From the NCBI GenBank assembly GCA_019309685.1, contig JAFDFT010000001.1, positions 1-62,246 on the forward strand: a stretch of 62,246 nt of DNA. Reading direction: 5' to 3'. Positions 2,480-43,805 of this stretch are shown piece after piece (the first letter of the stretch is position 1; every line of letters begins with the position of its first letter). Below the pieces are notes generated by a model. The model searched no databases, was not told where the DNA came from, and saw only the letters and a list, made by a program, of their open reading frames with translations. Source of the stretch: Deltaproteobacteria bacterium (GTDB taxonomy: Bacteria; Desulfobacterota; Desulfobacteria; Desulfobacterales; JAABPS01). Made by a program: the position numbers and the translations under genes.

Positions 2480-5400
2480 CTACTCCCATTGTTTTTGAAT
2501 TTCAAGAGCTTTCCAGCGCTGATTTTCAGGAATATTATTAAACCCTGGCTTCATTCTGGATTCAATCATACCTTCAATGTCAATGATCCTGTGAGGCCTA
2601 TTGACTTTTGCGGCCTTTTCGTTCCATTTCGCAATCTCTTGCATAATGGCCTGCGTTGCCTTGTAATCTTCCCGCCTTAGAGCGTTTACAAATCGATCTG
2701 CAAAGGACCGTCTTTTCTCTGAAATAGAAGTTTGCATCTTCTTTGTTGCTCTATAAGAGGCAAATCCCTTTGATACAGATGTGGGCTGCAGGCCAACAAA
2801 ACTCTTTTGGACAAACTCTTTAGTTGTGATCTTCCTGGGGCCGGCTTTCCCCACTGCGTTAATATCCCGGCCACTTCTGGTCCTGTGGCCTATTGTGTAT
2901 AGTTCAAGGCCCCTCATTGCGTTTCTAACAGATAACGGAGTGAACGGCGTTTCAGCCGCCGCCCGGTAATAGTTGCCTGACTTCAAGCTTTTATACATAT
3001 TTATTGAATCTTCATAGGCCGCGTACGGCACACCGATAATGTCATAAACGTTTTTGGGTACTTCAATTGATAGTGATCCGGAAAAATCCGCACCAACTAC
3101 ACCAGGAAGACCGTAAACGATTAAGTCTTTCATCCATTGATCCGGTACCATCTTTCTTGCCATTGTGAGCGCGTCCTCGTCGTCTTCTCCAATTGCCGCG
3201 AAAAGGATATCAGTAAACACCTTAAAAAACGGTAGAGACGTTAAACCGCCCATTAAGAATAGATTTCTAAGACTCCTGGCAAAAGCTTTCTTTCCGCCTC
3301 GCTGGTTAAAAAACAGATGTCTCATTGCTAAAAGATAGTTATGGCTGAAGGATCTGAACGTATAAGCCGCCCTGGCAATCTTCTGAGCATCCCCGCCTCG
3401 CATACCTGTGGGCATATTTGCCTTGCCATAGAGGAAGTGGCTATCATAAACAACCGTTTTTGCAAACGCTACTGCATCATCATGTGACATGCCCTTTTCT
3501 TTCACACCGACACGATAAGCAGCGAGCCCGGTTGACGCCCGGTTGAACTTCTCAGCCACTTGCATGAAGATACCTGACTTATCAATAACCTTTTTGAAAT
3601 GTTTACCTATCCCGACACCTGGCATGTTCCCTTTAAGTTCTCTTAAAAACAGATCCATGGTTGCGCCGGATTCTACCATTTCATGTAAAGCCTGCTGTTC
3701 GTTTTTAGTTATGTGTTTATAATCAACCTCTTTCCCGAACCATGCGTTTTTGGACGTTAAAGCCCTTCTGGTGTCTACCATGGCCTTGCTCAACTTTCTG
3801 TGGGCTCCTTTTGTGTGAAGTCCCAGCATGGGGGCTGCCATTACAACATTTTGTGTAAGGTTGACCATACCCGACTTAATCACAAAGCCAAGATATTTAA
3901 CAAAGAATATCCCTCGAAGGGTATCAACAGCGCGATCCGTTTTATCCTGGTTAGCCAGCATGTCCTTGACGTACTTAGATAAATGCTTGTACCCGGCTGG
4001 GTATTTTTTCGCGTCCACATTAACAAGGATCTCATGGTGCGCCTTTGTTCTTGTAATTTTTGTTTTAAATCCGGCATATCCGGAAAGATAATCAAACAGT
4101 ATCCCGAATATGTCTTCTTTTTCATGGCCAGGGATATTCTTTCTGTGAATTCCATGCTTACCCCAGCCCCTTGCTTTGAAAGTGTCTGCAACGGCTTTTG
4201 ATAGCGCATCTTCCATGTCTGCCGTTAAACGTCTGCGTGCAAGGTCAAGAGCCTCTTTGCGAGTTTTACCCTCTTTATTGTAAAGTCTATCAGCTTCATA
4301 CTGAACCCTGGACGTTGCAAGATCCTTGCCCGCCGATGAGACAACCTGTTGAATTCCCTCAATTGGTATCTGAAAGAAGACTTCATCCGGCAGTTCTTTC
4401 AGCGGTCCAGGATCGCTTATCCTATAGTCAGACACACTACCCTTAAGCTTCCCTTTTGCGACCGCATCTTTTAACCACTGTTCAGCTCTTGCCGACGCTT
4501 TTCTATTAATAGGCAATATCCTGTCTTTGGTTAAGCTGAAATGCTCCCTGAAAACAACAATTTCCTTTTCTTTATTAAATATCTGAATATAACCGCTGCC
4601 GGTCCGCCGGTGCGGAAAATAATTATTAGCTTTGTTAATGTTCGCCCTGTATTCTCTAATCTTTGACGAGTCAAGATCCTCGATTCTCATGGTCCTGTCA
4701 ATATCGACGAACTTTTCGTCAAGCTTTTTCCTGATAGTTATAAAACCCTGTATAACCGCTGGGTTAACCCGGCTTTTTTCAAGGAAAGCTTTAACTTCCC
4801 GATAGTGTTCAGGATCGATTTCAATGTCTTCGCCCTGCTCTGCAGGCTTGTTCCAATCGGTCGGGACCGCCTTCTTTGGCATCCGTCTATCATCCCATTT
4901 CCATATCAAGTCTTGTAGTTCTTTCTTTTGAGCTTTGGACCATTTCCCATATTCGTCCTGTAGTTCCCCCAGGTCCCCTTCATAATCGTTAAACAGCTCG
5001 GTTGATCGCGTCTCTGCTGCTTTTATTTCAACGCCAACCGCATCTTTCATAAACCAAAACTTTTTGCCTGCCCAATAAGGATTATTGAAAGTTCGATCAT
5101 ACCACTTCATATCCTTATCAACAAAACCCTTTCCGAAACGATCCTGGGCGTATTTAAACAAGCCTTTAGATTCCCGGTGTATTTTCTTGTGTGAAGGATC
5201 TTTGAGTTTCTTTAAACCTTTTTTTGCTTCCGGCATGTGCCTATTAAGCAGGTCTTTGATATCCTGGTCCAAGTCTTCTTCGTCGATCATACTGTCAAGA
5301 TCATCTGCCGCCCATGGGGAGCGACCGCCTTTCTCCATGCCGTAGGCTATGTTCTCTTTCATTTTTTCAGGCCCGGCCTGGTCAATCTTGCTTCGCGCTA

Positions 5401-8400
5401 AATCGATTGCCTGTTTTTTGATCGTGCCATTTGCAAGCTGTTGGCCGGTTGTGGCTTCTGTAACCGTCCACTCTTTATCATCCTCAGCTCTTGATATAAA
5501 AGCTTCTATCGGCTCGCCGGTCCAATCATCAGGCACAACGTCAACCTTTTTAGCATTGTCCGGGGCCGTCTCAAATTCTCCTCGAACATTTACATAGTAT
5601 TGTGATGGTTCAGGTCGGGGAGTCTCGACGGGCGTTTCCATTACGGGCGTTTCAGCTTCTTCAATATCGGTTTCTTTTAAGCCTATCGATTTCAACATAT
5701 TGTCTCTATCGACTTGCCGTTCTGTTGCGACTTCCTCCGTGACGTCCTCTCTTACCCTTGAAAGATCGTTTAATTGGTCTTCAATCTCTGACAACTGCTG
5801 TTCCTTGTCAGCTATTTCCTGGCCTTTACCGAACTTCTTATCTGCAAGCGTTTGATGTTCTGCAAGCTCTATTTCAAGCTCCTTAATATAATCCGTTTCC
5901 TTTTGTGGCTCTGCGAGTCTTTGTTCAATACTGTTATTAATAACAGTAGTTAATCCACCAGGTCCCCTTGTGGTTCTTCTAATAATAAGATCGCCCTCAT
6001 GCCTTAACTCAACCATTGTATCGTCAAGCACATCTTCATTAAGAGTGATAGGTGTACCAGGCTTTTTGAGAACCTCGTTAAGATTATACCACACCAGGGG
6101 CTCAAAGGTGACTTTAAGATCTAAGCCGTGGACCTTGGTATTAAAATAAACTTTATCCTGTCCGGCTTTCTGCCTTGCACGATAATCTGAATAGGAAATA
6201 CCCTTGAAGCTCTTTTCAATTTTACCCTTAATGTTATCCCATTCTTTCCGGAATTCCTTTATAAACTCTTTGCTGGTTAATTCCTCGCCTTTATATGTAT
6301 AGGTTTCAAGTTTTCCGGTCGGGAATATCGATTTAATCGTTTTTGCAACACCTTCTGCTCTAACAAGGTTTTCTTTTTGATTCGGGATATCGATCTCTTT
6401 AAGACTTTTTACACTGCGCCTGGCTGAAGATACCGCCCTTTCGTGGCTTGATTTAAGTATCCGTAAGTTTTTAAGATCAATTTCAAGATCATTCTTTGTA
6501 AACAAAAGAGGATTTCCGGAAAAAGCGGCTTGCATTTCTGCATAAGACACCTGTTCTTCGCCTAAAGGTTCGTCAAAGGTCCTGCCGTCTATATCTCCAT
6601 TAAGCATTTGATCGATAAACTTTTGCTTTTTCATCAATCGATCATACATAACAGAATCAAGAGTATTTTTAACACCATAGTTAAATATCTGCACTTCTGC
6701 GTTTTCGTTCTTTTCTCTTACTATCCTGCCGTTTCTTTGCTCAATATCCATTGGCCGCATGGGTGCGTCAAGATGGTGAGCTGCTATAAGCTTATTCTGG
6801 ATATTAACACCAATGCCAAGTTTGGCCGTCGAACCGATAATAAATCTTATCTTGCCGTCCCGGGCTCTTTGGAAAACAGCTTCCCTTTGAACATCGGTTT
6901 TAAGTTCTCCGATAATAGCAATCTCTTTGGCCTTCATTCCCTTTGCAATCAGCTTGTCTCGGATATCGTGATAGGCATTAAAGGTCTTGTCTGAATTTTG
7001 ATAGATATCAAGAAAGGCTATCTGTACGCTGTTATCTTCTGCCGTATCCTCATAGATCTGATAAATGTTTTCAATAGCGGTATTTAACTTGCTGCCAGGA
7101 TCATCTTTATAATGTTGTGGGTCGATCAGGCGTAAATCAACCGCAGCTTTCCGGGCCTGGCCAAAGAGGACAAGAGGAACGTGCCGCTGTCTCATTTTCT
7201 CCCTGCCTGTCAACTGCTCCCAATGTTCCCGGGTATCCCTTAATATTTCAATAAAGCCTGATAGGGCATTTGTACGCTCAACAACAACCATTTCAGGCTT
7301 GCCGGTTTTAATCTTTGGAAGAACAAGCCCAGCATCCTGGGTTAAAACAACATCAGACGCCGTATGGAACATGGTTAATAGTTCAGGACCGTTTACATAC
7401 TTATTGAATCTTTCGACCGATTTAAACGTCCCGGACTCGGTTTCTTCAAGCGCGACTGTGGTATCTCCAAAGTTTGCCGCGAAATCATCAAATAACGTTG
7501 CGTTATATTCTTCAAGCAGATCTGGTCGGATATATCTGATCATGGTCCAAAGCTCTGCGGTTGTGTTGGATATCGGCGTACCTGTGGCTAATATGATGTT
7601 CTTACCGCCGGTTTTCTGCCTGATATAATCGGCTTTTAAAAGTAAGGACGTACTGCGCTGTGCAGATCCCTGGTCAATCCCCTTAACCTGGCCCATTTTG
7701 GTAAAAAACTCTGAGCGTTTGTAATTATGCGCTTCGTCGATTAAAAGAGCATCAACGCCAAGCTGCTCAAATTTTAGGGCATCGTCAACGCGTCTGTTTA
7801 ATAGTTTTTCTAAATGCGCTTGTTTTCGTTTCTTAAGGGCCTTCATCTGCTTAACCGTTAAAGATCCCTTTCCCTCTGCCGCTTCGAATTCGTCAACGGT
7901 CGCTTCTATCTCGTCAAGTTGTTCCTGGACGAAAGCTGCCTCTCTTTCGGCATCGTCTGCAATACCGTCAAAGAATGAATGAGGCAATATAACAGCATCC
8001 CAATCGCCGGTAGCAATTTGAGAAAGTAACTTCTTACGGTTTTTACCCTTCCTCTGTCCGTCGCTGGGAATAAGGACTCGCGCTTGCGGGTAAAGCTTAT
8101 GAAATGATTTAGCATATTGCTTAATTGTGGCGTTTTGAACTACGATCAAGGGCTTTCTTGCGGTACCTATCCGTCGCATTTCCATGGCCAGGGTAACAAA
8201 AGAACCCGTTTTTCCGGTCCCTACACCATGGGAAAATAAGGTTGACTCCTGCAAACCTCTTGCAACTGCCTTCTTTTGTAACCAGCGCAGTTCCCTTTCG
8301 CGAGAAGCGTTCGGAAAATATTTAACGTCGGGTGGATCAAACGTTCTTAAAACATATCCGTTAAATTCCTCATTATATATTTTTGCTAAATCCGGTCCCC

Positions 8401-11400
8401 ACTTTTCGTGGCTTTTCGACCACTTTAAAAACTCCGCCTGAATTTCTTTCTGTTTCTCTGTGGCTGCGAGCGTGGCTTCTGCATTAAGGACTTTCGACAT
8501 TCCGCCTTCTGGATTCTGAACAGAATCATAAACCTTTGTTCTCTTTAGATTTAAAGCATCCTGAACGAGTACATGCCCTTTTACTCTCCCCGTTCCCCAG
8601 GTATTTACATTCTTTGCGTTATCGTGTCGGGATCTCGGCGAAACTTTCCATGCGGAAGTTTCTCTCGTTCGTGCCTGCTGAACTTCGGTATCAACCTCCA
8701 TGGTTGTTGATATGAATTGTTGGATAAGGTCGTTAGGTAGCCATGAGCTCCCCAGCTTGAAATAAATAAATTCTATGTCTAATTCTTCCGGCTGGACAGC
8801 TTTAAGCGCTTTAACGTTATGCTTATATTCTGGTTTTTCGCTCGCCTGCTGCTCAACAAGAATAAGCTTTTTCTTAACATTCCCGGAAAGATAGTTCTCG
8901 GGAGTCTCGATCATACCGTTTTCAGGGTTTAGATATCCAAGCTCCTGATCAATAACATCTTTATAAACAGCTTCTTTAGTCGATCCTGTAAGATCGGCAA
9001 TGAACTGAGTGTTTACTTTACCTTTATAAATTAAAGAAAGCGCTATCGCGTCTTTTACATTATCTGCTGTTTTAGGTTCTCTAAAAGGAAAAATGGTCCG
9101 CTTCGCGAATATGGCAGACTTTGTAAAAGAAACAATATTTACCTTGCGTTCCTGCCCCTTTTTGGCTCCGCTTTTAAATTTAGTGGTATGCTGCTTGACC
9201 GTTTCATCTTCCAGGGCATCAACCACAGGAAAGTCATTATCTATCTTTTGCAAGAAAGAGTTTGCAGGGGCGCCGACGTTTCCGTTCTTAGAAACGAAAG
9301 CATCGTAATCTTTGTTTAATTGTTTCCGTAATTTTGTGATTTCCGCGTCGGTTGCGTCCTCTTGCTGCATCCGGTCGATAATCTTTATAGTCGTGTCTTT
9401 TAATTTTAAATAATCCCTGGCCCTGCTTTCCCGGCCCTTATTATCGATTGCTTTAACCAGCTTACCTTTTGTGTTGTAAATTTTAGGCTCAACAAGGATA
9501 CCGTCCTCAACAACGCGAAACTTGCCGTCTTTTTCAAGCAGTATATTTTCTTTCGTGCCTATATCGGCATATTCCTTTTCGCCTTCTTCCACGATAGAGC
9601 CTTCACCGGCTATATCTTTTGGCAGGGTTTCTATGGCTTTTTTGATTTGCTCGGCAAGATCCCCTTTGTTTGGCAACAGGGTATACGTTTTTTCACCATA
9701 CATGGTCCCTTTTTTCGAGTGCTTCCCCATGACCATTTCAGGATGATCGACAAAATATTCATTTATAGGGACCGTATCTGATGCAGCACGACCGGACTTG
9801 ACTTCCTTTGTGATCCTGAAGTCTTTTCCCAATCCCTGCAATTCGTTGTCTTTTTTCCGAAAAATAAGAATATCGGTAACAACTTCGGTGCCAGCGTCCT
9901 TCTTAAACGCCGTTTCTGGAAGTCTTATTGCACCGATCAAGTCGGCTTTATTTGCAATATACTCTTTAACGTTACCATTTGTTGTTGAATCTAAGGTATA
10001 TCGTGAAGTAATCGCGATAACGAGGCCACCAGGTCGCACAGAATCAATCGAACGCGCAAAGAAGTAGTTGTGTATGCTCCAATCTGAGTAATCAGGATGC
10101 TTCTTGTCGTAGACCGGATATTTACCAAAAGGGAAGTTACTCACAACCAGGTCCGCGGAATTGTCGGGGATCCCCTTTGCATTTTCAAAGCCGGTTATTT
10201 GAATTCGAGCCTGCGGATATAGCTTTTCAAGTATTTTTCCTGTGATTGTATCTAATTCGACACCTACCAGGGCAGAATTATTGCGCATAGCTTCGGGCAT
10301 TAAACCAAAGAAGTGACCGACACCGGCAGCGGGCTCTAAAACAGTCCCGCCTTTAAAGCCGAAATGTTCGGCAATGTCCCAAATAGAATTGATAACCTTG
10401 CGTGATGTGTAATGAGCGTTTAGGGTGGACTCTGCGGCGCTGTCCCATTCTTCCTGAGTCAATAAGCCGTTAAGCCTGGGATGAAGGTGTCTTCCGTACT
10501 TGCTTTTCCATTCCTCGTATTTTTTAAGATCATCCCCATATCTACTGAAATAGTTTTCAGGCTTTTTGATATCGGAAGAATTCTTTAGGAAGTTGTCGTA
10601 TTTGCGGGTAAAAACCTTTTGAGCGAAAGCGCCCCAGCCAACATACTGAGCCAGGGCCTTCTTTTCTTCAACGGTAGGATTACGATTTTCGGATTCGAGC
10701 TGTTTAACAAGTCGAATTGCTTTTATATTGGTCTTGATTTTAGTTACGTCACCGCGCGGAAACATAAGGTCGCCCGCTTCGATAACGTGGTTTTGATCTT
10801 CTTTCTTTGTTAGGCTGTCATCGTCCCTAAGATTTGCAGTTCCAGCTCGTTCGCCAGGCTCCTGGGTGGATTCTGACCGCTTGCCGGGCCGTCCGACGGC
10901 GCCACTATCTTTGCGTACACCACTTCCTCGATCTGGTCTGGTTCCATCTTCCCCTGCAGGCGCAGTATCGATGTCAGTATCGACGACCTCTGCACTATCC
11001 GGAGCAATATCTGTTTGAGCTGGTCCCGGTCTTCCTGAAACAGCTTCCGGGTGTCCTGCGGGTGGTTTTCCAGTAGCCATTGCAGATGGCTTTCCCACTC
11101 CGGGTAGTTCTCCGGATTCTCTATCTCCAATTCCTCCGGGTTCAGGTTCTTCAATTCCTGTAGTGACAGTTCCGACGCCTTCAACACCTTCAACGATAGA
11201 TCCACCTGTGGCCTCCTTTCCCATTTCTTCTTTTATAAATTTCTCAATATACACCTTTCCCTTTAAGGAAAGAGTATCAATCATAATTTTAACAAATTCA
11301 GATCCACTTTTACCCGCTGCGATAGCTGCTTTCAAGGCTTTGTGTAAATGAGGCTTTATCTGTTCCCATTTATCCGGGTTGAATTCTGTAGAAAATTCAC

Positions 11401-13411
11401 CCTTTTGGCCAAGGATATCGCTAACAGCCTTCAGCTCGTCGGCAAGGACGGTAAGGTTGTCAACAACTTCTTTGCCCTTAATCTCTCTTTCTTGCCTTTT
11501 AAAGTCGGCAAGTAGTTCGGTGGGGGTTGAATCTTCTACAGGTTTGGTTATCTCTCGTATTCCGGGTGATACGGATTCTTGGTCTTCTTCGGTAGGTGAT
11601 TTCCGGGTTTGGTCCACCGGCTTGCGCTGAACAGTCTCTTGCTCATATCCTCGCTGAAGGTCAGATTCGGATCCCGGTTTAATAACCCGGACACGCCCTC
11701 GAATTTTCGGGAGTCTTTCTTCAATTTCTTGCTCAGTTTTTTTAGGTTTTCTTTCATAGCGTATTACCCCCTTAGCTTCAGTCTTAATATAATCCAATTT
11801 TTTGAATTTGTCAAACAAATTCTTGTCTAAAACCTCAGTTTTTCCTTTTTCATGTTTAAATACTTGAATAGAGTCCCGACCGTCCACATTATTATCAGAC
11901 ATTTCAAAGATAACGTTATGATTATCTTTGTATTCCTTAAACAACTGTCGAAACGTAGGAAGTGAATAATTATAGGCCTTTACAGAGGCACTCAATGGAA
12001 CTTTACGGCCAACAACTTCGCGACCTTCTGCCCGGGCTTCTTCTTCCTGGGCCATTTTACGCAATCTTACTCTAACCTGAGAAGTTTCCGCGTCAATGTC
12101 AGTAAAGCCAATGTGAGCTTCCCCACCTTGTTCAAGTACCTTTTCTATATATCCTTTTGCTTTTTCATAATTGCCTAAAAGCGAATCATAAGCTACATGG
12201 TGTCCCTTTTTTATGGCTCTATTTAAGATTACGCCTGAAATCTTTTTTGCTTCTTCGTGATATGCGACAGCTTCTTCGCCCTGGTCGTGGCCTAAATCAA
12301 CTTTTACCTGATCAGCATTAGGATCGACAAAAACTTTCAGGTCTATCCCCATATCAATAGAGCCGCTTGTTTTACCCGCACCAGGGAGCCCACCCGTTAA
12401 AACGATAGTTTGTGTTTCTCCAAGGTCTTTAGCTGTGGGCTTGCCCTTTAAGTGAAGATTAAACAGCCGTCTTTTCTCTTGCCGGGTAATTTTGACCGGT
12501 GCCAACTCGGTTGCAAGCTCTATTTCCTCGATAACAGCGTCAAGGATCTCGTTTAATTCGCCAAGTTTGGTCCGGCCAGTAACCTTTTCTATGGCTTTAA
12601 GGATAATATCTTTAAGCTGGCCCCATAGGGTTTGAGACTCATTTTTAACGCCTTTGGCTCCGATTGAATTCAACCAGTTAGCAAAGGTTTTATTGGTAAG
12701 ACCGTATGTTGCGAGCTCGTCAACTTTTGCTCTGCCGGTATCTATCTCTGTGAATATTTTTTTAACATATGTCGGGGCGGTATCAACGTGTGTTTTTAAT
12801 GTATCGTAAAATTCAACGAGGTCTTTATGGAGCGTTTCATAGGATCCGCTTTGTGTCTTGATAACGTTATTAATAAGAGCATGAATTGCCTCATGCGCGA
12901 GCGGCTGGTCAAATTTGTCGGCGGTTCTTTCTGCCTTTTCGAGTAGGCCCCTGTTAATAAATATTCTGTTCGTCCTGTTACTGTAAACTGCGATAGAAGT
13001 CGGCCTTGCCTTTATATTATTAACAACGCTGATCTTTACGTCGTATTTTTTAATGGCATTAAAAAGCGCTCCGTATTGTGTTGGAACTCCAACCTTGCCA
13101 AAAAAGGCTTCAACAAAATCTCCAACGGGAGATACAGTTTTAACCTCGTCCACCGTTTCATTGAAAGCTGTGAAAAAGTCGGCTTTCTTGACCGGCGCTA
13201 TCGGCTTGTCCGACATGTTCTTTCTGATAAACTCAATAATATCAACACGATCTTTTTGAGCCTCTGCCAGTTTTTCCCCGACAACCTTAAGCGCTGCCTT
13301 CCGATCTTCCATGCCTAATTCGACAAGATCATCGACCAGGCCGTTAATTTCGGTTCGTTCGTCCCTCGATATCTTAGCCAGTTTGAAACATTTATTAGAT
13401 ATCATCGTCAA
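2480..13411 (-). CDS. 3643-aa polyvalent protein: HExxH module, zeta-toxin-like P-loop kinase, disordered linker, N6-adenine MTase, SNF2/DEAH helicase, hydrophobic C-terminal region (DarB-like, probably virion-delivered)
   Basis: One uninterrupted ORF. Motifs: HEAIH 12881..12895; GGLPGAGKTS 12365..12394; P/G/E/D-rich linker 10802..11209; YVGWGAF; LEPAAGVGHF 10310..10339; SNFPFG 10124..10141; GVGTGKTG 8204..8227; DEAH 7727..7738; QRNGRIVR 6716..6739. Confidence 0.9.
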   Translation of the reverse strand: MTMISNKCFKLAKISRDERTEINGLVDDLVELGMEDRKAALKVVGEKLAEAQKDRVDIIEFIRKNMSDKPIAPVKKADFFTAFNETVDEVKTVSPVGDFVEAFFGKVGVPTQYGALFNAIKKYDVKISVVNNIKARPTSIAVYSNRTNRIFINRGLLEKAERTADKFDQPLAHEAIHALINNVIKTQSGSYETLHKDLVEFYDTLKTHVDTAPTYVKKIFTEIDTGRAKVDELATYGLTNKTFANWLNSIGAKGVKNESQTLWGQLKDIILKAIEKVTGRTKLGELNEILDAVIEEIELATELAPVKITRQEKRRLFNLHLKGKPTAKDLGETQTIVLTGGLPGAGKTSGSIDMGIDLKVFVDPNADQVKVDLGHDQGEEAVAYHEEAKKISGVILNRAIKKGHHVAYDSLLGNYEKAKGYIEKVLEQGGEAHIGFTDIDAETSQVRVRLRKMAQEEEARAEGREVVGRKVPLSASVKAYNYSLPTFRQLFKEYKDNHNVIFEMSDNNVDGRDSIQVFKHEKGKTEVLDKNLFDKFKKLDYIKTEAKGVIRYERKPKKTEQEIEERLPKIRGRVRVIKPGSESDLQRGYEQETVQRKPVDQTRKSPTEEDQESVSPGIREITKPVEDSTPTELLADFKRQEREIKGKEVVDNLTVLADELKAVSDILGQKGEFSTEFNPDKWEQIKPHLHKALKAAIAAGKSGSEFVKIMIDTLSLKGKVYIEKFIKEEMGKEATGGSIVEGVEGVGTVTTGIEEPEPGGIGDRESGELPGVGKPSAMATGKPPAGHPEAVSGRPGPAQTDIAPDSAEVVDTDIDTAPAGEDGTRPDRGSGVRKDSGAVGRPGKRSESTQEPGERAGTANLRDDDSLTKKEDQNHVIEAGDLMFPRGDVTKIKTNIKAIRLVKQLESENRNPTVEEKKALAQYVGWGAFAQKVFTRKYDNFLKNSSDIKKPENYFSRYGDDLKKYEEWKSKYGRHLHPRLNGLLTQEEWDSAAESTLNAHYTSRKVINSIWDIAEHFGFKGGTVLEPAAGVGHFFGLMPEAMRNNSALVGVELDTITGKILEKLYPQARIQITGFENAKGIPDNSADLVVSNFPFGKYPVYDKKHPDYSDWSIHNYFFARSIDSVRPGGLVIAITSRYTLDSTTNGNVKEYIANKADLIGAIRLPETAFKKDAGTEVVTDILIFRKKDNELQGLGKDFRITKEVKSGRAASDTVPINEYFVDHPEMVMGKHSKKGTMYGEKTYTLLPNKGDLAEQIKKAIETLPKDIAGEGSIVEEGEKEYADIGTKENILLEKDGKFRVVEDGILVEPKIYNTKGKLVKAIDNKGRESRARDYLKLKDTTIKIIDRMQQEDATDAEITKLRKQLNKDYDAFVSKNGNVGAPANSFLQKIDNDFPVVDALEDETVKQHTTKFKSGAKKGQERKVNIVSFTKSAIFAKRTIFPFREPKTADNVKDAIALSLIYKGKVNTQFIADLTGSTKEAVYKDVIDQELGYLNPENGMIETPENYLSGNVKKKLILVEQQASEKPEYKHNVKALKAVQPEELDIEFIYFKLGSSWLPNDLIQQFISTTMEVDTEVQQARTRETSAWKVSPRSRHDNAKNVNTWGTGRVKGHVLVQDALNLKRTKVYDSVQNPEGGMSKVLNAEATLAATEKQKEIQAEFLKWSKSHEKWGPDLAKIYNEEFNGYVLRTFDPPDVKYFPNASRERELRWLQKKAVARGLQESTLFSHGVGTGKTGSFVTLAMEMRRIGTARKPLIVVQNATIKQYAKSFHKLYPQARVLIPSDGQRKGKNRKKLLSQIATGDWDAVILPHSFFDGIADDAEREAAFVQEQLDEIEATVDEFEAAEGKGSLTVKQMKALKKRKQAHLEKLLNRRVDDALKFEQLGVDALLIDEAHNYKRSEFFTKMGQVKGIDQGSAQRSTSLLLKADYIRQKTGGKNIILATGTPISNTTAELWTMIRYIRPDLLEEYNATLFDDFAANFGDTTVALEETESGTFKSVERFNKYVNGPELLTMFHTASDVVLTQDAGLVLPKIKTGKPEMVVVERTNALSGFIEILRDTREHWEQLTGREKMRQRHVPLVLFGQARKAAVDLRLIDPQHYKDDPGSKLNTAIENIYQIYEDTAEDNSVQIAFLDIYQNSDKTFNAYHDIRDKLIAKGMKAKEIAIIGELKTDVQREAVFQRARDGKIRFIIGSTAKLGIGVNIQNKLIAAHHLDAPMRPMDIEQRNGRIVREKNENAEVQIFNYGVKNTLDSVMYDRLMKKQKFIDQMLNGDIDGRTFDEPLGEEQVSYAEMQAAFSGNPLLFTKNDLEIDLKNLRILKSSHERAVSSARRSVKSLKEIDIPNQKENLVRAEGVAKTIKSIFPTGKLETYTYKGEELTSKEFIKEFRKEWDNIKGKIEKSFKGISYSDYRARQKAGQDKVYFNTKVHGLDLKVTFEPLVWYNLNEVLKKPGTPITLNEDVLDDTMVELRHEGDLIIRRTTRGPGGLTTVINNSIEQRLAEPQKETDYIKELEIELAEHQTLADKKFGKGQEIADKEQQLSEIEDQLNDLSRVREDVTEEVATERQVDRDNMLKSIGLKETDIEEAETPVMETPVETPRPEPSQYYVNVRGEFETAPDNAKKVDVVPDDWTGEPIEAFISRAEDDKEWTVTEATTGQQLANGTIKKQAIDLARSKIDQAGPEKMKENIAYGMEKGGRSPWAADDLDSMIDEEDLDQDIKDLLNRHMPEAKKGLKKLKDPSHKKIHRESKGLFKYAQDRFGKGFVDKDMKWYDRTFNNPYWAGKKFWFMKDAVGVEIKAAETRSTELFNDYEGDLGELQDEYGKWSKAQKKELQDLIWKWDDRRMPKKAVPTDWNKPAEQGEDIEIDPEHYREVKAFLEKSRVNPAVIQGFITIRKKLDEKFVDIDRTMRIEDLDSSKIREYRANINKANNYFPHRRTGSGYIQIFNKEKEIVVFREHFSLTKDRILPINRKASARAEQWLKDAVAKGKLKGSVSDYRISDPGPLKELPDEVFFQIPIEGIQQVVSSAGKDLATSRVQYEADRLYNKEGKTRKEALDLARRRLTADMEDALSKAVADTFKARGWGKHGIHRKNIPGHEKEDIFGILFDYLSGYAGFKTKITRTKAHHEILVNVDAKKYPAGYKHLSKYVKDMLANQDKTDRAVDTLRGIFFVKYLGFVIKSGMVNLTQNVVMAAPMLGLHTKGAHRKLSKAMVDTRRALTSKNAWFGKEVDYKHITKNEQQALHEMVESGATMDLFLRELKGNMPGVGIGKHFKKVIDKSGIFMQVAEKFNRASTGLAAYRVGVKEKGMSHDDAVAFAKTVVYDSHFLYGKANMPTGMRGGDAQKIARAAYTFRSFSHNYLLAMRHLFFNQRGGKKAFARSLRNLFLMGGLTSLPFFKVFTDILFAAIGEDDEDALTMARKMVPDQWMKDLIVYGLPGVVGADFSGSLSIEVPKNVYDIIGVPYAAYEDSINMYKSLKSGNYYRAAAETPFTPLSVRNAMRGLELYTIGHRTRSGRDINAVGKAGPRKITTKEFVQKSFVGLQPTSVSKGFASYRATKKMQTSISEKRRSFADRFVNALRREDYKATQAIMQEIAKWNEKAAKVNRPHRIIDIEGMIESRMKPGFNNIPENQRWKALEIQKQWE

Positions 13412-13625
13412 ATATTCCCGCGATAAAAGATTGAATTATAGTTTCAAGCATTTCCACATCTTCCCGGAGGATCTTTGCCTTTTCCGCAAGATAGGCCCCG
13501 CCGTCTTTGGCTGTCTTTTTAACGGCCTCAACTATTCCGCCCAACGTTCCAAGGCCAAAGGCCATTTGCTTACTTGCGCTAAAGCCTAAACCCTGGCCGG
13601 GTTGCAAATTAAACACTGTTTGCAA
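13395..13625 (-). CDS. hypothetical small protein (76 aa)
   Basis: Track ORF that overlaps both neighbours by a few codons, in the same orientation as the virion block. Confidence 0.4.
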   Translation of the reverse strand: MQTVFNLQPGQGLGFSASKQMAFGLGTLGGIVEAVKKTAKDGGAYLAEKAKILREDVEMLETIIQSFIAGIFDDDI

Positions 13626-17648: not shown

Positions 17649-18053
17649 TTATAATTCCTCAACCACAATCTGTTTAATGTAATTATACCTATCCCTGATT
17701 GTGGTAAATCTCCATTTGCGCTTTTTAGGGTTTCCAACTGCTACCGGCGCCAATTGCGTTACCGGTTCCGGAGTTTTATTTAGATCTTCCTGTATGGCCT
17801 GTACGATCTGTGCAACCGTAGCGGTTGATTCAGACATTTTATCTGCTGAAACTGCGAGGCTTTGGGCCATATCTATTACAACGTTTGCAGACTTCAACAT
17901 AACGCCCGATGTCAGGTCCGGCTTTTTCTCCTGGACTATAACCGGCTTTTTCGGTTTTGTTTTTATGCTGCTCTTATTCCTTGTTACTTCAAGGCCTTTC
18001 TTTTCAACCTTCTTCTTAAGAGCCGCTTGCGACATTCGTTTCATTAAATACAA
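17649..18053 (-). CDS. hypothetical basic protein (134 aa)
   Basis: Track ORF that overlaps the end of the upstream gene by 10 nt. Confidence 0.5.
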   Translation of the reverse strand: MYLMKRMSQAALKKKVEKKGLEVTRNKSSIKTKPKKPVIVQEKKPDLTSGVMLKSANVVIDMAQSLAVSADKMSESTATVAQIVQAIQEDLNKTPEPVTQLAPVAVGNPKKRKWRFTTIRDRYNYIKQIVVEEL

Positions 18054-21000
18054 TCCCTTAAGATTTTGAGTGAAAGTATCCTCTCGTCGATATCTTCAAG
18101 AGCTTGCCCGGCATCCTCTTTCACTTTAACAACTTCGCCGGTTTCGGAGATCTGAACTTCTGATTCATACTTTAAGCCCTTGCCATGCTCGGGCGTGATT
18201 TCTATTTGTTCCCGTTTTAGGAGCGCCTTGGCTTCCTGTGGGGCCTTTTCTGCGACCTTTTCCGTTTTAGGTGTCTCGGGTAGGGCCTTTCTTTGTAAAT
18301 CAGGATAATCTTTAAGGACTGATTCTGGAACGGGTTTGCCCTGGTTAATAGCCGTATGCACAGCGTTTTTGTGAAAGGTATTCTCAGTATAGGACGTTGC
18401 CCCCTTCCGTGGCTTTCCGTGTAGCGATTCATATTCAGAAAGTGTCATTTCCCACGTTTCTTTGCCCTTCTCAGAGGCCGGAGGTTGGACGATCTTTTCT
18501 GCCTTAGTTTTCTCCAATTTATCTGTTGGAGATCTCCAACTTTCTGTTGGATATCCAACAGGTTTTTTCTGTTTTCCCCAGGAAAGCCAGTTCTTAAACT
18601 TCTCAACTGACATTTCAGTAATATCACCAAAGCCCTGCCAGCCTTCTTCATAATTGGCAAGATAACCCTCTTTGGCAGCTTCTTCACTTGAAAAGCCGGT
18701 CATTACCTTGTGCTCGTCAAACTTGCCTGTTCCTGGTTCAACCTGATCAACAATATAAACATTAGGACTTTCAGTATCGGGACCGACAAAGGTATCAATC
18801 TGATCACCGTCTTTGCCTTCGGTACGGTTGAAATATCCGTAATGATGTTTCATTTCGATTGACCATTTTTTCCCGTCAGGAGCAACGCCTTTGCGCTGAG
18901 ATCCTTTCGGGTTTTCAATGGCAATCTCCATGCCCTGAATATGGATTGCCCCTTTTAAATAATTTCCTGCTTGCTTTTGTTTTTCAGATGGGTTAATATC
19001 AACCTTAATTTCTTGATCACCAATTTTAGAGGAAGCTATATGTCTACCATCAGGAAGTATGTCTGTTTTAATTGTGGAATCACTTTTAGTAGAAATTGGA
19101 GTTCCAGGAAAGGTCAAGTCCGCTTTTTCTGTTGCGTCTCTTGCAGAAATTCTTTTGATTGTGGAAGAAAGAGAATCAACGAAACTGATTACAGGCTTAG
19201 GTATAGATACGTCACTCGGAATGGAAAGCCTATGGGTGAGCATCGTTTTGTTATGGAGCAAACCATCGGGCGTCCACTGGCTTCCGACGAGGCCGTTCAT
19301 CACATCAACGGGGATAGTCTTGATAATCGCCCTGAGAACTTGCGGATCGTTGAACGAGGATCTCACAGAAGAAAGTATCATCTGCTGTCTGTCCCGCTTG
19401 AGCGAATTAAAACTCTCAGACTGCAGGGTTTTAGTATTAGAGCGATTGCCAAAAAGATTGGAGTTAGCAAGAACACTATCACCAACAGACTCGTCGACCT
19501 TGGATTTCCTCTCTGTAGGCCGTAATTCAATAGTCGTACCCGCACCCGCAAGAGCTACATCAGTCTTTTTGGGTGCGGGCACTTTCGCTACGCGGCGATC
19601 TGCTTCAGAGATTACAGGCGGTTGCCCTTCGTCTCTTTTCTTTTGTTGTTCCTGGATATCAGTTTTAACGGTAGCCCAATATTTCTCATTTGCTTGCCGT
19701 TCTGCTTCCTCTGCAACTTCGACCTGTTGTAATGTCGTTGGTCTTGCTCCATACTTTTTCCGGCCCTTGGCAATCTCGCCTTCTTTTCGCTGCTGTTCAA
19801 TATTAGCTTCAACGCCCTTCCAGTATTTATCTTCCTCGCGCTTTTCTGTAATGAATTCACCGGCTTGTGTTATTTGTTCCTCGATACCGCCCAGCTTTTC
19901 AACCCGCTGATCTTCCTCTTGCTCCGCTTCAAACTCTTTGATTTTCTCTTGATTACGCCTTCTTGTCTGAAAGTCTGTAGTCGTTGGTTCTTCAACCGTC
20001 GGCTTTTCGGCCTTCGTGGGTTTTGTGGTTGAAAGGACCTCGTTTATTGCGTCGTAAAGAATATCATCTTTCGGTAGGTCTTTAAGCTCGCCTTCTAATT
20101 GTTCGCGAGTAATTTGCCCACCGTCAAGAGCCTCTTTTAATTGCTCTGTTTTCCTGGTCAGGTCGGTTTCTTTCTCGTCTTTATTGGCTTTAAGTTCTCT
20201 TTTATAATCGGCAATAACAAAGGGAGATCCTGCAACCTGGACGCCACCGGTAAGCATAGCACCACCAACGGCTCCCACCTTCATAGCCTTCTTTGCTTTT
20301 TTATGAATCGCCGGAAATTCGTTTAAAACTATCTTGGCTATTTCTGCGCCGGTCTTCTCATGGTTAGCTGCATAGAGATTGGCTATTTCATCAGGATATT
20401 GCTGTAAATATTCCTCTAAGCCTTCACCTGTGATATTGGCACCCAAAACACCTATGAACTGTCTGAGGCGTTTTCCAAAACCCATTTTGGCCCCGGTCTT
20501 GGAAAAGATCGTCTTCAACATTTTGATTTGAAAGATAGATCCGGCCTGTTCCAAAGGTGTATTTATTGCAGAGGTAAGCAGGCCAATTTCCCTTGCAAGC
20601 TCTTTATCAATACCAGCATCAACCAGCTCTTTGCGTTTCTGCCCGTATATCTGATTAAACATCGATATCGTGCCAGCGGGGATATTAAGGGCAGTTAAGG
20701 CCATACCAGGACCGAATCTTGACACACCGCCTGCAGCGGTTTCAATTATTCCTGAGCTACCAGGTAGAGGTTCCGGCAATGTTTCTACCCATTTTTCATA
20801 AGTCTCTATGCTCTCGTCCCTGATTTTTACAGAATAATCTCTTTTTAGGTCCTCGCGTTCCCTGGAAGTTAATGGAGATCCCTTGTCTTTTTCTGCTTGC
20901 CGCAGCTCTTTACCAAAAAGAGCTTTTTCGGTATCTGATAAAACGTTAAATGCAATTTCCGGCTTTCTTAATTCATACGCCTGGCTCGGTCCTTCTTTTT

Positions 21001-21367
21001 TCTTGTATGGCTCAGGTTCGCTTTTTGCATAGCTTTTCATGTGTTCCGCTTCACCTATCGCACCCTGGGCCATATCTCCTAACCCCTGGGCCGCATTGCG
21101 AAACATCTGTGTGCCAACTCTTTTAAATGTGAGTTCTGGGACTAATCCTGTAGCTGGGTCAACTTCGGCATAATCGGACTCTCCTTGTTCTTCGCCTTCG
21201 AACAAAGATTCGCCAAATTCCATGAAGGCACCGGCCATTTGTTTGCCAAGGCCCACAGCCTTTTGAGGCTCTTTCGGCTCAGGTTCTTCCCCTTCCCAGG
21301 TTATCTTTGTTGGATCTATTTCAGGGGGTTCGTTGTACCACGTTATTTTCTTTGGATTAATTGACAT
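18044..21367 (-). CDS. 1107-aa virion-module protein with a C-terminal inorganic-pyrophosphatase-like domain; carries an antisense HNH gene inside it
   Basis: Continuous ORF with an E/K-rich coiled N-part. The C-part IENPKGSQRKG...YGYFNRTEGKDGDQIDTFVGP resembles the PPase core pattern (E-PKGS ... YG-IP-T ... DGDP-D-). Confidence 0.75.
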   Translation of the reverse strand: MSINPKKITWYNEPPEIDPTKITWEGEEPEPKEPQKAVGLGKQMAGAFMEFGESLFEGEEQGESDYAEVDPATGLVPELTFKRVGTQMFRNAAQGLGDMAQGAIGEAEHMKSYAKSEPEPYKKKEGPSQAYELRKPEIAFNVLSDTEKALFGKELRQAEKDKGSPLTSREREDLKRDYSVKIRDESIETYEKWVETLPEPLPGSSGIIETAAGGVSRFGPGMALTALNIPAGTISMFNQIYGQKRKELVDAGIDKELAREIGLLTSAINTPLEQAGSIFQIKMLKTIFSKTGAKMGFGKRLRQFIGVLGANITGEGLEEYLQQYPDEIANLYAANHEKTGAEIAKIVLNEFPAIHKKAKKAMKVGAVGGAMLTGGVQVAGSPFVIADYKRELKANKDEKETDLTRKTEQLKEALDGGQITREQLEGELKDLPKDDILYDAINEVLSTTKPTKAEKPTVEEPTTTDFQTRRRNQEKIKEFEAEQEEDQRVEKLGGIEEQITQAGEFITEKREEDKYWKGVEANIEQQRKEGEIAKGRKKYGARPTTLQQVEVAEEAERQANEKYWATVKTDIQEQQKKRDEGQPPVISEADRRVAKVPAPKKTDVALAGAGTTIELRPTERKSKVDESVGDSVLANSNLFGNRSNTKTLQSESFNSLKRDRQQMILSSVRSSFNDPQVLRAIIKTIPVDVMNGLVGSQWTPDGLLHNKTMLTHRLSIPSDVSIPKPVISFVDSLSSTIKRISARDATEKADLTFPGTPISTKSDSTIKTDILPDGRHIASSKIGDQEIKVDINPSEKQKQAGNYLKGAIHIQGMEIAIENPKGSQRKGVAPDGKKWSIEMKHHYGYFNRTEGKDGDQIDTFVGPDTESPNVYIVDQVEPGTGKFDEHKVMTGFSSEEAAKEGYLANYEEGWQGFGDITEMSVEKFKNWLSWGKQKKPVGYPTESWRSPTDKLEKTKAEKIVQPPASEKGKETWEMTLSEYESLHGKPRKGATSYTENTFHKNAVHTAINQGKPVPESVLKDYPDLQRKALPETPKTEKVAEKAPQEAKALLKREQIEITPEHGKGLKYESEVQISETGEVVKVKEDAGQALEDIDERILSLKILRDCI
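19040..19525 (+). CDS. HNH homing-type endonuclease (161 aa), antisense within 18044..21367
   Basis: SD AGAGGAAG (19028..19035) lies 4 nt before the ATG. Zn ribbon CFNC...CCVSC. HNH core GEHRFVMEQTIGRPL..EAVHHINGDSLDNRPENLRIV. C-terminal HTH IRAIAKKIGVSKNTITNRL. Confidence 0.7.
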   Translation: MSTIRKYVCFNCGITFSRNWSSRKGQVRFFCCVSCRNSFDCGRKRINETDYRLRYRYVTRNGKPMGEHRFVMEQTIGRPLASDEAVHHINGDSLDNRPENLRIVERGSHRRKYHLLSVPLERIKTLRLQGFSIRAIAKKIGVSKNTITNRLVDLGFPLCRP

Positions 21368-35533: not shown

Positions 35534-36619
35534 CTATGCGTTCGGATCTGCGATATAAGTATCAACTGCTATTACACCGAAATCCAAGCTGTTAAACCTG
35601 GCCTTGGAACAACCGAACATAGCCCCTGCGGTAATGACAAGAGCGTTACCACGGTCGTCTGTTTCCTCATTCCAGGAGTAACGGCCAAAGGCTCCGCCTC
35701 CGCCCCATGCGATTACAGCCGCCTGTGCGCCTAAGAAAAGCGCTCTTGCAGCATCAACGTCGCTACCTGAACCATAATCATCAAAACGAATTACATTTCG
35801 GTGTTTATGCAGGATAACGTCGGCGTATTCGCCCAAAGCGTTATGATACAGGTGATTTCCGTCACCGCGCAGGCCTGCGTTCTTCTGAATATCAACCCAA
35901 TCATTCTCAGAGGTTGACGTTCTTAGTGAGTAAGCCTGGAAGGTGTGCATAAGGAAGACAAACTTATTCTCTCCCTGTACGCGGAAAGGCTGGATCATTG
36001 GATCGAGAGTTTCAGCTTTTGCGACCAGCTTTTCAACAATTCCCAAAGCCAGGCCATCAGCCGAATCAAGATCGCCCTTACCGGTAGCAGCGCCGCCATA
36101 AATCTGATGTGCTGCGTCCGGGGCTCTTAAACTGTTGTTTGCTCGCCCTGCCCATGAAAGCCCAACATGGAAGGAAGTATCAACACCACGAGCCCCAGCC
36201 AGGTACATCATAAGCTGTTGGTCGTAATCTTCTGCCCACCATGTAGAAAGAGCGTTACGGCCTTCAAGCCGCATATTGTAGGGCACTCTCTGCTCTGACA
36301 TTTTGCCCTTTGATTTCGTGCCTTTACGTCTTTGGCTGATGAAAACAAAATCATTAAAGAATTCCAGCGCTTCCTCTGCGCTCGTTCCTTCAATTTGATC
36401 ATCATCCTCAGCACCGTCTCCGCCGAGTTTCATACGCAGGGCAAAGATGATTTTCTCACCAGCCTGCTTATTGAGCTCAGTTTTGACTTTAATAAGGGCA
36501 TCGTCGCCCGTACCCATAAACTTGCGGAAATATTGCTTTACTTCCGCTTCTTTGGCAAGGCTGGTTGACCAGCGCTGAACTGCCAAAGGATCATTTAATG
36601 CAAATTCTGTTGCAGCCAT
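35534..36619 (-). CDS. major capsid protein, N4 gp56 family
   Basis: N-terminal signature RWSTSLAKEAEVKQYFRKFMGTGDDALIKVKTELNKQAGEKIIFALRMKLGGDG...IEGTSAEEAL. Size 361 aa, positioned after the scaffold gene. Confidence 0.85.
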   Translation of the reverse strand: MAATEFALNDPLAVQRWSTSLAKEAEVKQYFRKFMGTGDDALIKVKTELNKQAGEKIIFALRMKLGGDGAEDDDQIEGTSAEEALEFFNDFVFISQRRKGTKSKGKMSEQRVPYNMRLEGRNALSTWWAEDYDQQLMMYLAGARGVDTSFHVGLSWAGRANNSLRAPDAAHQIYGGAATGKGDLDSADGLALGIVEKLVAKAETLDPMIQPFRVQGENKFVFLMHTFQAYSLRTSTSENDWVDIQKNAGLRGDGNHLYHNALGEYADVILHKHRNVIRFDDYGSGSDVDAARALFLGAQAAVIAWGGGGAFGRYSWNEETDDRGNALVITAGAMFGCSKARFNSLDFGVIAVDTYIADPNA

Positions 36620-39838: not shown

Positions 39839-39933
39839 TAAATTCCTCCCCTAAATACAAGCTGCGCGATACCAAACAGTATCAATGCAAACAAAAAGCC
39901 CACTGCAAAGTCTATCAATTTGGTCCAGCTCAT
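39838..39933 (-). CDS. 31-aa membrane micro-protein
   Basis: Hand translation MSWTKLIDFAVGFLFALILFGIAQLVFRGGI. ATGA overlap with the portal stop. Confidence 0.3.
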   Translation of the reverse strand: MSWTKLIDFAVGFLFALILFGIAQLVFRGGI

Positions 39934-43489: not shown

Positions 43490-43805
43490 TTCGTTCGGTT
43501 CTCTTAAAGAGTACCCCACCTTTAATGAAAATCAGCTCTATCGACGGATCGTTTAATAGTGCTTGATACTCACGAGGAAATACGTTTTTATATGTATCCC
43601 ATATAACATCGCTCATTCCACCGTAACAACCATTTAAACTTTCAAGTCTCTCGCCCGTGGGGCACCCATCATTTTCCCTAATGATTATAGGCCTTTCTGA
43701 GACTGCCATTTTTTGGGGAATTGCGAAAAATTGCCATTTCCGAGGGCCTCGTCTCTGGTTTAAGACCAGTGTGTCGTTATACGGTATGAGATTATCTTCA
43801 TTCAT
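43464..43805 (-). CDS. hypothetical protein (113 aa)
   Basis: Track ORF. Confidence 0.4.
   Translation of the reverse strand: MNEDNLIPYNDTLVLNQRRGPRKWQFFAIPQKMAVSERPIIIRENDGCPTGERLESLNGCYGGMSDVIWDTYKNVFPREYQALLNDPSIELIFIKGGVLFKRTERNEKRNKRT

Follow-up and report, generated by a model that had tools for sequence, protein, structure and literature searches.

A giant protein closing the late operon of an uncultured podophage is probably a gp16-type ejection protein with anti-restriction and effector domains

Overview of the giant protein

The 62,246-bp contig JAFDFT010000001.1, taken in full from assembly GCA_019309685.1 of a Deltaproteobacteria bacterium and hereafter called the window, carries on its minus strand one giant gene at the end of a phage late operon. 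We consider its product, with a probability of roughly 80%, to be a gp16-type ejection protein of an approximately 62-kb podophage (F116/Bcep22/Lastavirus group) that carries anti-restriction and effector domains destined for the host cytoplasm. As an earlier sequence-only reading of this DNA had claimed, the gene is a single uninterrupted open reading frame (ORF) of 3643 codons, with no internal stop over 10.9 kb, and at 17.6% of the contig it takes up more than one sixth of the genome. From its N terminus onward the protein contains a helical leader, a zincin-like metallopeptidase, a Zeta-toxin-family P-loop kinase, a low-complexity linker, an N6-adenine methyltransferase (MTase), a SWI2/SNF2-type helicase and an all-alpha C-terminal module (Table 1; residue numbers are counted from TTG 13411). 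The catalytic motifs are intact and lie exactly where that reading had placed them (HEAIH at 12881-12895, GGLPGAGKTS at 12365-12394, GVGTGKTG at 8204-8227, DEAH at 7727-7738, and QRNGRIVR at 6716-6739); LEPAAGVGHF (residues 1025-1034) and SNFPFG (residues 1091-1096), which it had also quoted, are present as well. The profile searches that it had proposed as a check on its domain calls returned the MTase, the helicase, and the Zeta domain, all above the Pfam cut-offs.

Packaging of this protein into the phage's virions and its ejection with the genome would be expected from its homology to JC1 gp69 and the giants of the F116 group, for which a place in the virion or a role in ejection has been demonstrated or argued. 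The C-terminal ~925 residues would correspond, within this group, to T7 gp16, or internal virion protein D (here IVP-D), and, by analogy, would anchor the protein inside the capsid and join the trans-envelope ejection path. The N-terminal ~2,700 residues would form a loosely linked chain of domains, delivered ahead of or with the DNA, that acts in the host cytoplasm at the onset of infection. Within this chain, the zincin would probably cut the polyprotein into pieces, the Zeta-family kinase would act on some host substrate, and the MTase together with the SNF2 translocase would probably track along the entering phage DNA and shield it from restriction.

This reading agrees with a published framework. 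The F116-group giants were identified as homologues of T7 IVP-D by comparison of hidden Markov models (HMM-HMM E=8e-19; Hardies et al. 2016, PMC4819975), and the same study showed that internal virion proteins "variably host ... domains destined for the cytoplasm," the N4 virion RNA polymerase being the extreme case. The DarB-like gp69 (4,515 aa) of the Bcep22-like phage JC1 has been detected in virions by mass spectrometry (PMC9144972). The combination of an MTase with an SNF2 helicase was described as the DarB archetype in a survey of polyvalent proteins, which also proposed that zincin domains process these proteins before or after delivery (Iyer et al. 2017, PMC5512222). A 2026 study of N4 gp50 described a 3,500-residue ejection protein of flexibly linked subdomains that threads through the tail (PMC13434306).

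The C-terminal module is shared with other giant phage proteins

The C-terminal region of about 1300 residues that had been picked out as hydrophobic was submitted to structure prediction and can now be refined to a defined all-helical module of 925 residues. It matches the NCBIfam model NF032893 ("PLxRFG domain") at 198.8 bits against a cut-off of 100 (1.5e-58, residues 3062-3606), and its AlphaFold2 (AF2) model is nearly all helical, with a predicted local distance difference test score (pLDDT) of 76 and a predicted template modeling (TM) score of 0.71. In tblastn searches, the module matches F116-like giants, including Epa33 gp62, which is annotated as "structural protein 5," and profile-profile alignment (hhalign) with the Epa33 gp62 C terminus gives a probability of 99.9 and an E value of 3.7e-34 at an identity of ~24%. 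Foldseek searches of BFVD with the model recovered terminal pieces of other giant phage proteins (E values down to 4e-22, TM scores 0.5-0.65) and, at ~1e-7, free-standing proteins of ~1,450 aa from Celeribacter phage P12053L, Vibrio phage ICP2, and Roseobacter phage CRP-5; the CRP-5 protein is annotated as "Internal virion protein D" (E 1.3e-7). Two of these phages, ICP2 and P12053L, are members of the phiRIO-1 clade (PMC4819975). Comparisons of the module with T7 gp15 and with Xanthomonas phage CP2 ORF24 by hhalign were not significant, and a scan of genome contigs with the module returned only trivial 80-residue matches in metagenome-assembled genomes (MAGs) of Ignavibacteriales and Bacteroidetes.

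The giant gene closes a podophage late operon

The gene is the last of a same-strand late operon headed by the large terminase (TerL), portal, and major head protein genes, and it converges on plus-strand genes. This is the late, virion-gene neighbourhood expected of phage polyvalent proteins, and it is syntenic with the loci of Bcep22 gp75 and the F116-like gp62, where a gene of 11-14 kb ends the virion module. The portal matches 436 records, those of Stx2-converting phages included, and its closest cultured relatives, at 27-28% identity, are from Ochrobactrum phage POI1126, Agrobacterium phage Atu_ph08, Pseudomonas phage Itty13, Klebsiella Lastavirus, and Burkholderia phages Bcep22 and BcepIL02. 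The capsid protein shares 41% identity with its Bcep22 counterpart. These sequence measures place the phage among the podophages that Hardies et al. 2016 (PMC4819975) termed the "F116 homology group." It has no close cultured relative, since megablast of the giant gene against phage records gave no match; the phage is uncultured, and its host is probably a member of the sulfate-reducing Desulfobacterales.

The same context bears on the suggestion that the giant might be a cytoplasmic late enzyme outside the virion, whose MTase and helicase would modify progeny DNA before packaging while the other domains are passengers. MTase-SNF2 dyads are abundant on plasmids (the core of the giant matches 2,133 plasmid records), and not all of them are linked to transfer, as such a role would allow. 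However, the C-terminal module is common to giants that are virion-proven or virion-annotated, the gene ends a structural operon, and the attachment of variable N-terminal domains to a constant module is ill-suited to a housekeeping modifier. A purely cytoplasmic role is thus quite improbable.

Four genes upstream of the giant gene, in the same operon, lies a gene for a 1107-aa protein with an InPase domain, a pyrophosphatase-like OB fold of the polyvalent-protein type. The PHROG labels over this neighbour read "endolysin," "minor head protein," and "DarB-like," and look like annotation transferred from fusion proteins. A role as a lysin was rejected, given that the "endolysin" label covers the InPase domain; the protein is probably a second injected protein.

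A DarB-type methyltransferase-helicase core

The sequence-only reading had likened the MTase-helicase core to P1 DarB, and the comparison is borne out at several levels. The family phrog_10089 ("DarB-like antirestriction") matches residues 772-2591 at E=0, 155 phage records align with the core at 31-37% identity across 98% of its length (many of them annotated "DarB-like antirestriction"), and P1 DarB itself is matched directly at E=1e-20, with 26% identity over 39% of the core. DarB protects incoming P1 DNA in cis from type I restriction (PMC5512222). The Pfam N6_Mtase model scores 24.1 bits (cut-off 20.4), and phrog_11801, like phrog_10089, also matches the MTase. That reading had further singled out SNFPFG as replacing the usual NPPF/Y of motif IV. 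The motif is there as described, but it is no oddity; among 132 relatives the family norm is N-[V/F/P]-P-F.

The SNF2/DEAH helicase call is likewise upheld. Three Pfam models exceed their cut-offs, namely SNF2-rel_dom at 43.2 bits, Helicase_C at 27.7, and ResIII at 25.7, and motifs I, II, and VI are kept in the relatives. A sequence search of the PDB with the whole protein gave weak INO80/SNF2 matches only. Between MTase and helicase lies a family-specific bridge that is 49-60% identical to P0003 and P0006 (relatives are referred to by P numbers) and has no Pfam match. Pfam and profile searches of the giant protein revealed no nuclease domain, and profile searches likewise gave no match to an RNA polymerase family and no muralytic domain of the kind present at the N terminus of T7 gp16 (a lytic transglycosylase).

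Weak PADLOC and NCBIfam matches to DrmD, DpdE, and PLD-helicase could be taken to mean that the phage carries a system for defence or exclusion akin to DISARM DrmD or the type I/III restriction-modification enzymes. These matches, however, cover ~100 residues of a generic helicase C-lobe and reach 16-30 bits against NCBIfam cut-offs of 610-1100. Neither a nuclease domain nor partner genes were found. The PADLOC and NCBIfam scores effectively refute a defence system here, which we regard as scarcely credible.

The segment ahead of the MTase contains a small helical domain, conserved in P0177 and without a Pfam match, followed by the linker, which is rich in G (17%), E (11%), P (10%), and D (9%). 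The linker had been described as visibly GC-richer, and this is correct (GC 0.542 versus 0.435 for the whole ORF). Its GC at third codon positions is lower than the ORF average (0.31 versus 0.42), and the shift therefore reflects amino acid composition rather than foreign DNA.

N-terminal leader, zincin, and Zeta-family kinase

The HExxH module noted from the sequence is a zincin, as judged by motif conservation and predicted fold. Of 70 relatives, 81-83% retain H173, E174, and H177 and 93% retain E232, and in the AF2 model (pLDDT 87) the HExxH helix comes after a sheet of three strands. An HExxH motif with a glutamate on the helix that follows characterises the zincins of polyvalent proteins, and the conserved residues and the predicted fold agree with this. 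Minigluzincins and other zincins are the best PDB matches of the model in Foldseek (selecase, probability 0.93). The Pfam SprT-like model matches the HExxH region weakly (E 0.003), and the Pfam MPTase-PolyVal model gave no match to the giant protein. The domain is rare, with 73 representative clusters at E<=1e-3 in an exhaustive phmmer search of 1.84 billion representative proteins, mostly within giants of 2-5.6 kaa. In P0178 (second copy), P0204, P0185, and P0188, the HExxH is degenerate (e.g., AFNGV, SFNAV, AEESV), and these copies are probably inactive, structural versions; the copy in the giant protein described here is intact. The same zincin also occurs at residues ~762-1054 of Xanthomonas phage CP2 ORF24 (L003 5715-13151; 2,478 aa, "hypothetical protein"), the gene of which occupies a gp16-like slot, preceded by two "internal virion proteins" and an "endolysin" of 730 aa and followed by the tail fibres; as noted above, hhalign did not detect the PLxRFG module in this protein.

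The zeta-toxin-like P-loop is also supported. The Zeta_toxin family (PF06414) matches at 36.8 bits against a cut-off of 22.3, with 176 of the 199 profile positions covered, and in an alignment to the Zeta structure 1gvn_B, K347 falls on K46 and the invariant D367 on D67. The equivalents of K46 and D67 are catalytic residues in zeta/PezT kinases. Matches to the kinase domain in P0130 and P0006 have E values of 1e-37 to 1e-40, and the Zeta-family kinase recurs as an N-terminal domain in P0006, P0070, P0107, and P0130. A PDB sequence search with the Zeta segment alone gave nothing useful. The Zeta assignment concerns the family of the kinase and not its substrate, and at the level of sequence it does not imply UDP-GlcNAc specificity. 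In P0070, a protein of 6,258 aa, the Zeta domain is joined to the MTase-helicase core, an ART domain, and sigma-70 regions 2 and 4 (PF04542, PF04545), which hints at an injected sigma factor.

In the same exhaustive phmmer search, the ~70-residue leader aligned solely to the N termini of other proteins (P0200, P0203, P0214, P0216, and P0232, over query residues 1-65/77), and N termini resembling M.SLA.CL are also present in P0007, P0031, P0124, and P0129. Stand-alone homologues of 65-153 aa occur in other metagenomic sequences (P0214, P0216, P0232), which would fit a separable targeting or adaptor module.

Table 1. Features of the giant protein and its gene neighbourhood in the window.
Feature	Position	Strand	Residues	Basis or remark
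Whole giant ORF	2480..13411	(-)		3643 codons from TTG 13411; stop codon 2480-2482
N-terminal leader, ~70 aa, helical hairpin	13187..13405	(-)	3-75	phmmer; AF2 helices 14-29 and 34-63
Zincin-like metallopeptidase	12512..13129	(-)	~95-300	Conservation, AF2, and Foldseek; proposed ligands/catalytic residues H173, E174, H177, E232
Zeta-toxin-family P-loop kinase	11732..12496	(-)	~306-560	Pfam PF06414; Walker A GGLPGAGKT
Small helical domain	11207..11554	(-)	~620-735	BLASTP alignments to P0005, P0006, P0007, P0017, and P0130 start at query 604-650
G/E/P/D/A-rich low-complexity linker, just upstream of MTase	10802..11209	(-)		Composition; aligns with P0003, P0006, P0177
N6-adenine MTase	9512..10759	(-)	~885-1300	Pfam N6_Mtase; motif I LEPAAGVGHF, motif IV SNFPFG
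Family-specific MTase-helicase bridge	8315..9511	(-)	~1301-1699	Inside phrog_10089 match
SWI2/SNF2-type superfamily 2 (SF2) ATPase/helicase	6362..8314	(-)	~1700-2350	Pfam; motifs I GVGTGKTG, II DEAH, VI QRNGRIVR
Post-helicase helical region and small domain	5258..6361	(-)	~2351-2718	Switch point between core-type and C-terminal-type similarity
PLxRFG / IVP-D-type module, all-alpha	2483..5257	(-)	2719-3643	NF032893, BLASTP, AF2, hhalign, Foldseek
56-aa ORF (MAFGLGTLGG...DDDI)	13395..13565	(-)		ATG 13565; stop overlaps ATG of giant gene by 11 nt
1107-aa neighbour with InPase domain (PF18823)	18044..21367	(-)	795-928 (InPase, own numbering)	Pfam E 7.6e-57
Major head protein	35534-36619	(-)		Same-strand late operon as giant gene
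Portal	39930-41984	(-)		Same-strand late operon as giant gene
Large terminase	41984-43519	(-)		Same-strand late operon as giant gene

Ejection component or encapsidation anchor

Several results weigh against the interpretation of the giant as a gp16-type ejection protein with a working enzymatic chain. Comparison of the module with the single T7 gp16 sequence by hhalign was not significant (probability 0.2), and Foldseek of the C-terminal model against the PDB gave no significant match, with the solved N4 gp50 absent from the hits; the link to gp16 accordingly runs through the published HMM chain and similarity of predicted structures. Hydrophobicity is mild, with one 19-residue Kyte-Doolittle window above 1.4 (residues 3389-3407, 1.46), and the helices are too weakly hydrophobic on their own to support membrane insertion. 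The hydrophobic stretches that had been listed from the sequence are thus present but do not predict transmembrane segments strongly. No family could be assigned to the ORFs that separate the giant gene from that of the capsid protein, leaving the tail and internal virion proteins unnamed, and tblastn of these upstream ORFs against the Bcep22, Epa33, D14I, and CP2 loci recovered only the capsid protein and a marginal 91-residue match (E 0.006). The earlier placement of the gene "directly after the tail genes" therefore stands as far as its last position in the late operon is concerned, and the remainder is extrapolated from synteny with Bcep22 and F116-like phages. In the enzymatic chain, the E value of the zincin fold match is weak (0.38), and a profile of the kinase domain finds APS kinase (E 6e-4), Zeta (9e-3), and adenylate kinases with comparable scores.

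The top PDB hits of the C-terminal model are all helical membrane transporters (MFS, LeuT, NarK, Nramp; E>3, TM~0.1) and probably represent helical-packing noise.

These results leave some room for a packaged head protein in the sense of P1 DarB, in which the C-terminal module is an encapsidation anchor and takes no part in a gp16-like channel or ejectosome. The indirectness of the T7 gp16 link, the lack of solved ejectosome components among the PDB hits of the model, and the weak hydrophobicity would all be compatible with such an anchor, as would the literature on N4 gp50, whose C-terminal region is needed for encapsidation. On the other hand, Hardies et al. tie the C termini of the F116 group to IVP-D at E=8e-19, with one such protein per phage in a syntenic slot; Foldseek matches the module to free-standing IVP-D-type proteins of ~1,450 aa from phiRIO-1-clade phages; and the operon showed no further recognisable candidate of gp16 size. 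We therefore judge an anchor-only function rather unlikely and favour a gp16-type ejection protein.

Separate ancestries of the N-terminal domains and the C-terminal module

The relatives of the protein, examined in a comparison set of 331 giants, differ between its two parts. Its closest core relatives, P0003-P0013, are 49-60% identical to the MTase-helicase core, and BLASTP at E<=1e-5 detects nothing in them that resembles the C-terminal module. The module, in turn, is 46-61% identical over all 925 residues in at least 30 giants, P0043 and P0044 among them, and the upstream domains of the module-sharing giants include RadC/JAB, DdrB-type ParB nuclease, ART, 2H-phosphoesterase/ligase, other MTases, and MTase-helicase. 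Core-type alignments stop at query residues ~2550-2730, and those of the C-terminal module begin at ~2719-2766. Judged by these alignments, the N-terminal domains differ in ancestry from the C-terminal module: the core reaches 60% identity with one set of proteins, and the C terminus is 59-61% identical to another set with other domains. Named sources of the near relatives are Desulfosarcina variabilis and MAGs of Desulfobacterales, Nitrospirae, and Sphaerochaeta.

A protein mosaic on a contig from a fragmented bin of 646 contigs could in principle have arisen by reading through several genes or as a chimera of assembly, and the sequence-only reading had named a chimera as grounds for abandoning its interpretation. 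Yet every module junction recurs in independent assemblies. P0177, which comes from an independent sample, runs parallel to the first 900 residues and is 72% identical to them; P0130 (4,718 aa) has the Zeta domain, the MTase-helicase, and the C-terminal module in the same order; and P0125, P0031, and P0032 also span the junction between the core and the C terminus. Together with the 10.9 kb free of stop codons and the frequency of 3-6-kaa relatives on ~60-kb contigs, this leaves a chimera with next to no probability. The same relatives show that the fusion, presented earlier as distinctive, is not unique to this phage.

A tentative extension of these observations, to which we give well below even odds, is that the PLxRFG module and the ~70-residue leader together form a portable delivery chassis, such that whatever enzymes lie between them are packaged and injected, domains are swapped like the tips of polymorphic toxins, and the kinase is an undescribed injected effector. 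If so, the Zeta-family kinase might phosphorylate a host nucleotide-sugar, an NAD-type metabolite, or a defence signal at entry rather than act as a classical toxin.

Start codon and completeness of the contig

The true start codon is almost certainly ATG 13405 and not TTG 13411, because the N terminus of P0177, an independent relative, begins M-I-S-N-K at the equivalent codon. The product would thus have 3641 aa, and the length of 3643 aa given previously holds when counted from TTG. A 56-aa ORF immediately upstream overlaps the giant gene by 11 nt, which suggests that the two are translationally coupled.

The window is the longest contig of the 646-contig, 3.6-Mb bin. Its two ends (1-763 and 61737-62246, plus strand) both lie inside one apparent helicase-type frame, UvrD-like by eye, and the 5' end piece matches the PHROG category "DNA helicase." No terminal overlap exists between the contig ends. 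Because both ends fall in the one frame, the contig looks like a near-complete, circularly permuted phage genome of ~62 kb that was broken within a helicase-type gene.

Relation to known giant virion proteins

The nearest described counterparts are the giants of Bcep22-like phages (Bcep22 gp75, BcepMigl gp69, JC1 gp69, and those of Ralstonia phages), which are likewise encoded by ~60-kb podophages in a gene that ends the virion module. Their MTase-SNF2 core is 31-32% identical to the one described here over 98% of its length, and portal and capsid are related. The JC1 and Bcep22 proteins are longer (about 4,500 aa versus 3641 aa), the sequence identity is distant, and the host lineage differs, being probably Desulfobacterales in our case. 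The F116-group giants (F116 p60, H66 gp60, Epa33 gp62) and the "PLxRFG" proteins of Lastavirus have a homologous C-terminal module, sit in the same slot before the end of the late operon, and embody the same idea of cytoplasm-destined domains. The N-terminal domains of the F116 type differ; inspection of Epa33 gp62 by eye picked out two HExxH motifs and one small MTase motif of the NPPF type but did not bring an SNF2 dyad to notice.

With P1 DarB, the giant shares the dyad of N6-adenine MTase and SF2 helicase and the concept of virion-borne anti-restriction. DarB, about 2,250 aa long, is a head protein of a myovirus, whereas the phage described here is a podophage; DarB is not known to carry a PLxRFG module, a zincin, or a kinase. 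N4 gp50 resembles the giant in design, as an ejected protein of ~3,500 residues with flexible links, a gp16-like slot, and an enzyme required as soon as the phage enters. The analogy is confined to design; no RNA polymerase domain was found here, and the C-terminal model has no detectable structural match to the solved gp50.

The framing as a polyvalent protein in the sense of Aravind and co-workers, proposed from the sequence, fits well (Iyer et al. 2017, PMC5512222). Such proteins combine at least two unrelated effector or enzymatic domains, and this one has a zincin, a Zeta-family kinase, an N6-adenine MTase, and an SNF2 helicase. The multi-effector polypeptide, the late-gene context, and the co-occurrence of a zincin with the MTase-SNF2 dyad are as described for polyvalent proteins; the InPase is encoded here in a neighbouring gene. 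The survey of Iyer et al. 2017 (PMC5512222) did not single out the C-terminal PLxRFG module as a constant part, and the phrase "zeta toxin" is absent from its main text.

The architecture, genomic slot, and likely role of the giant are thus already on record, both from phages of the Bcep22-like, F116-like, and Lastavirus types and from the survey of polyvalent proteins, and it does not constitute a new category. It is a distant further member of a documented giant virion-protein design, from an uncultured lineage, and provides a dissected example of an ejection protein with enzymatic domains in an uncultured phage. What goes slightly beyond the literature cited here is the explicit separation of the ancestries of N-terminal domains and C-terminal module, the recognition of the Zeta-family kinase as a recurrent N-terminal domain, and the portable N-terminal leader; the latter two are flagged here as little-studied parts of these proteins. 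The separate ancestries support the view of such proteins as modular delivery vehicles.

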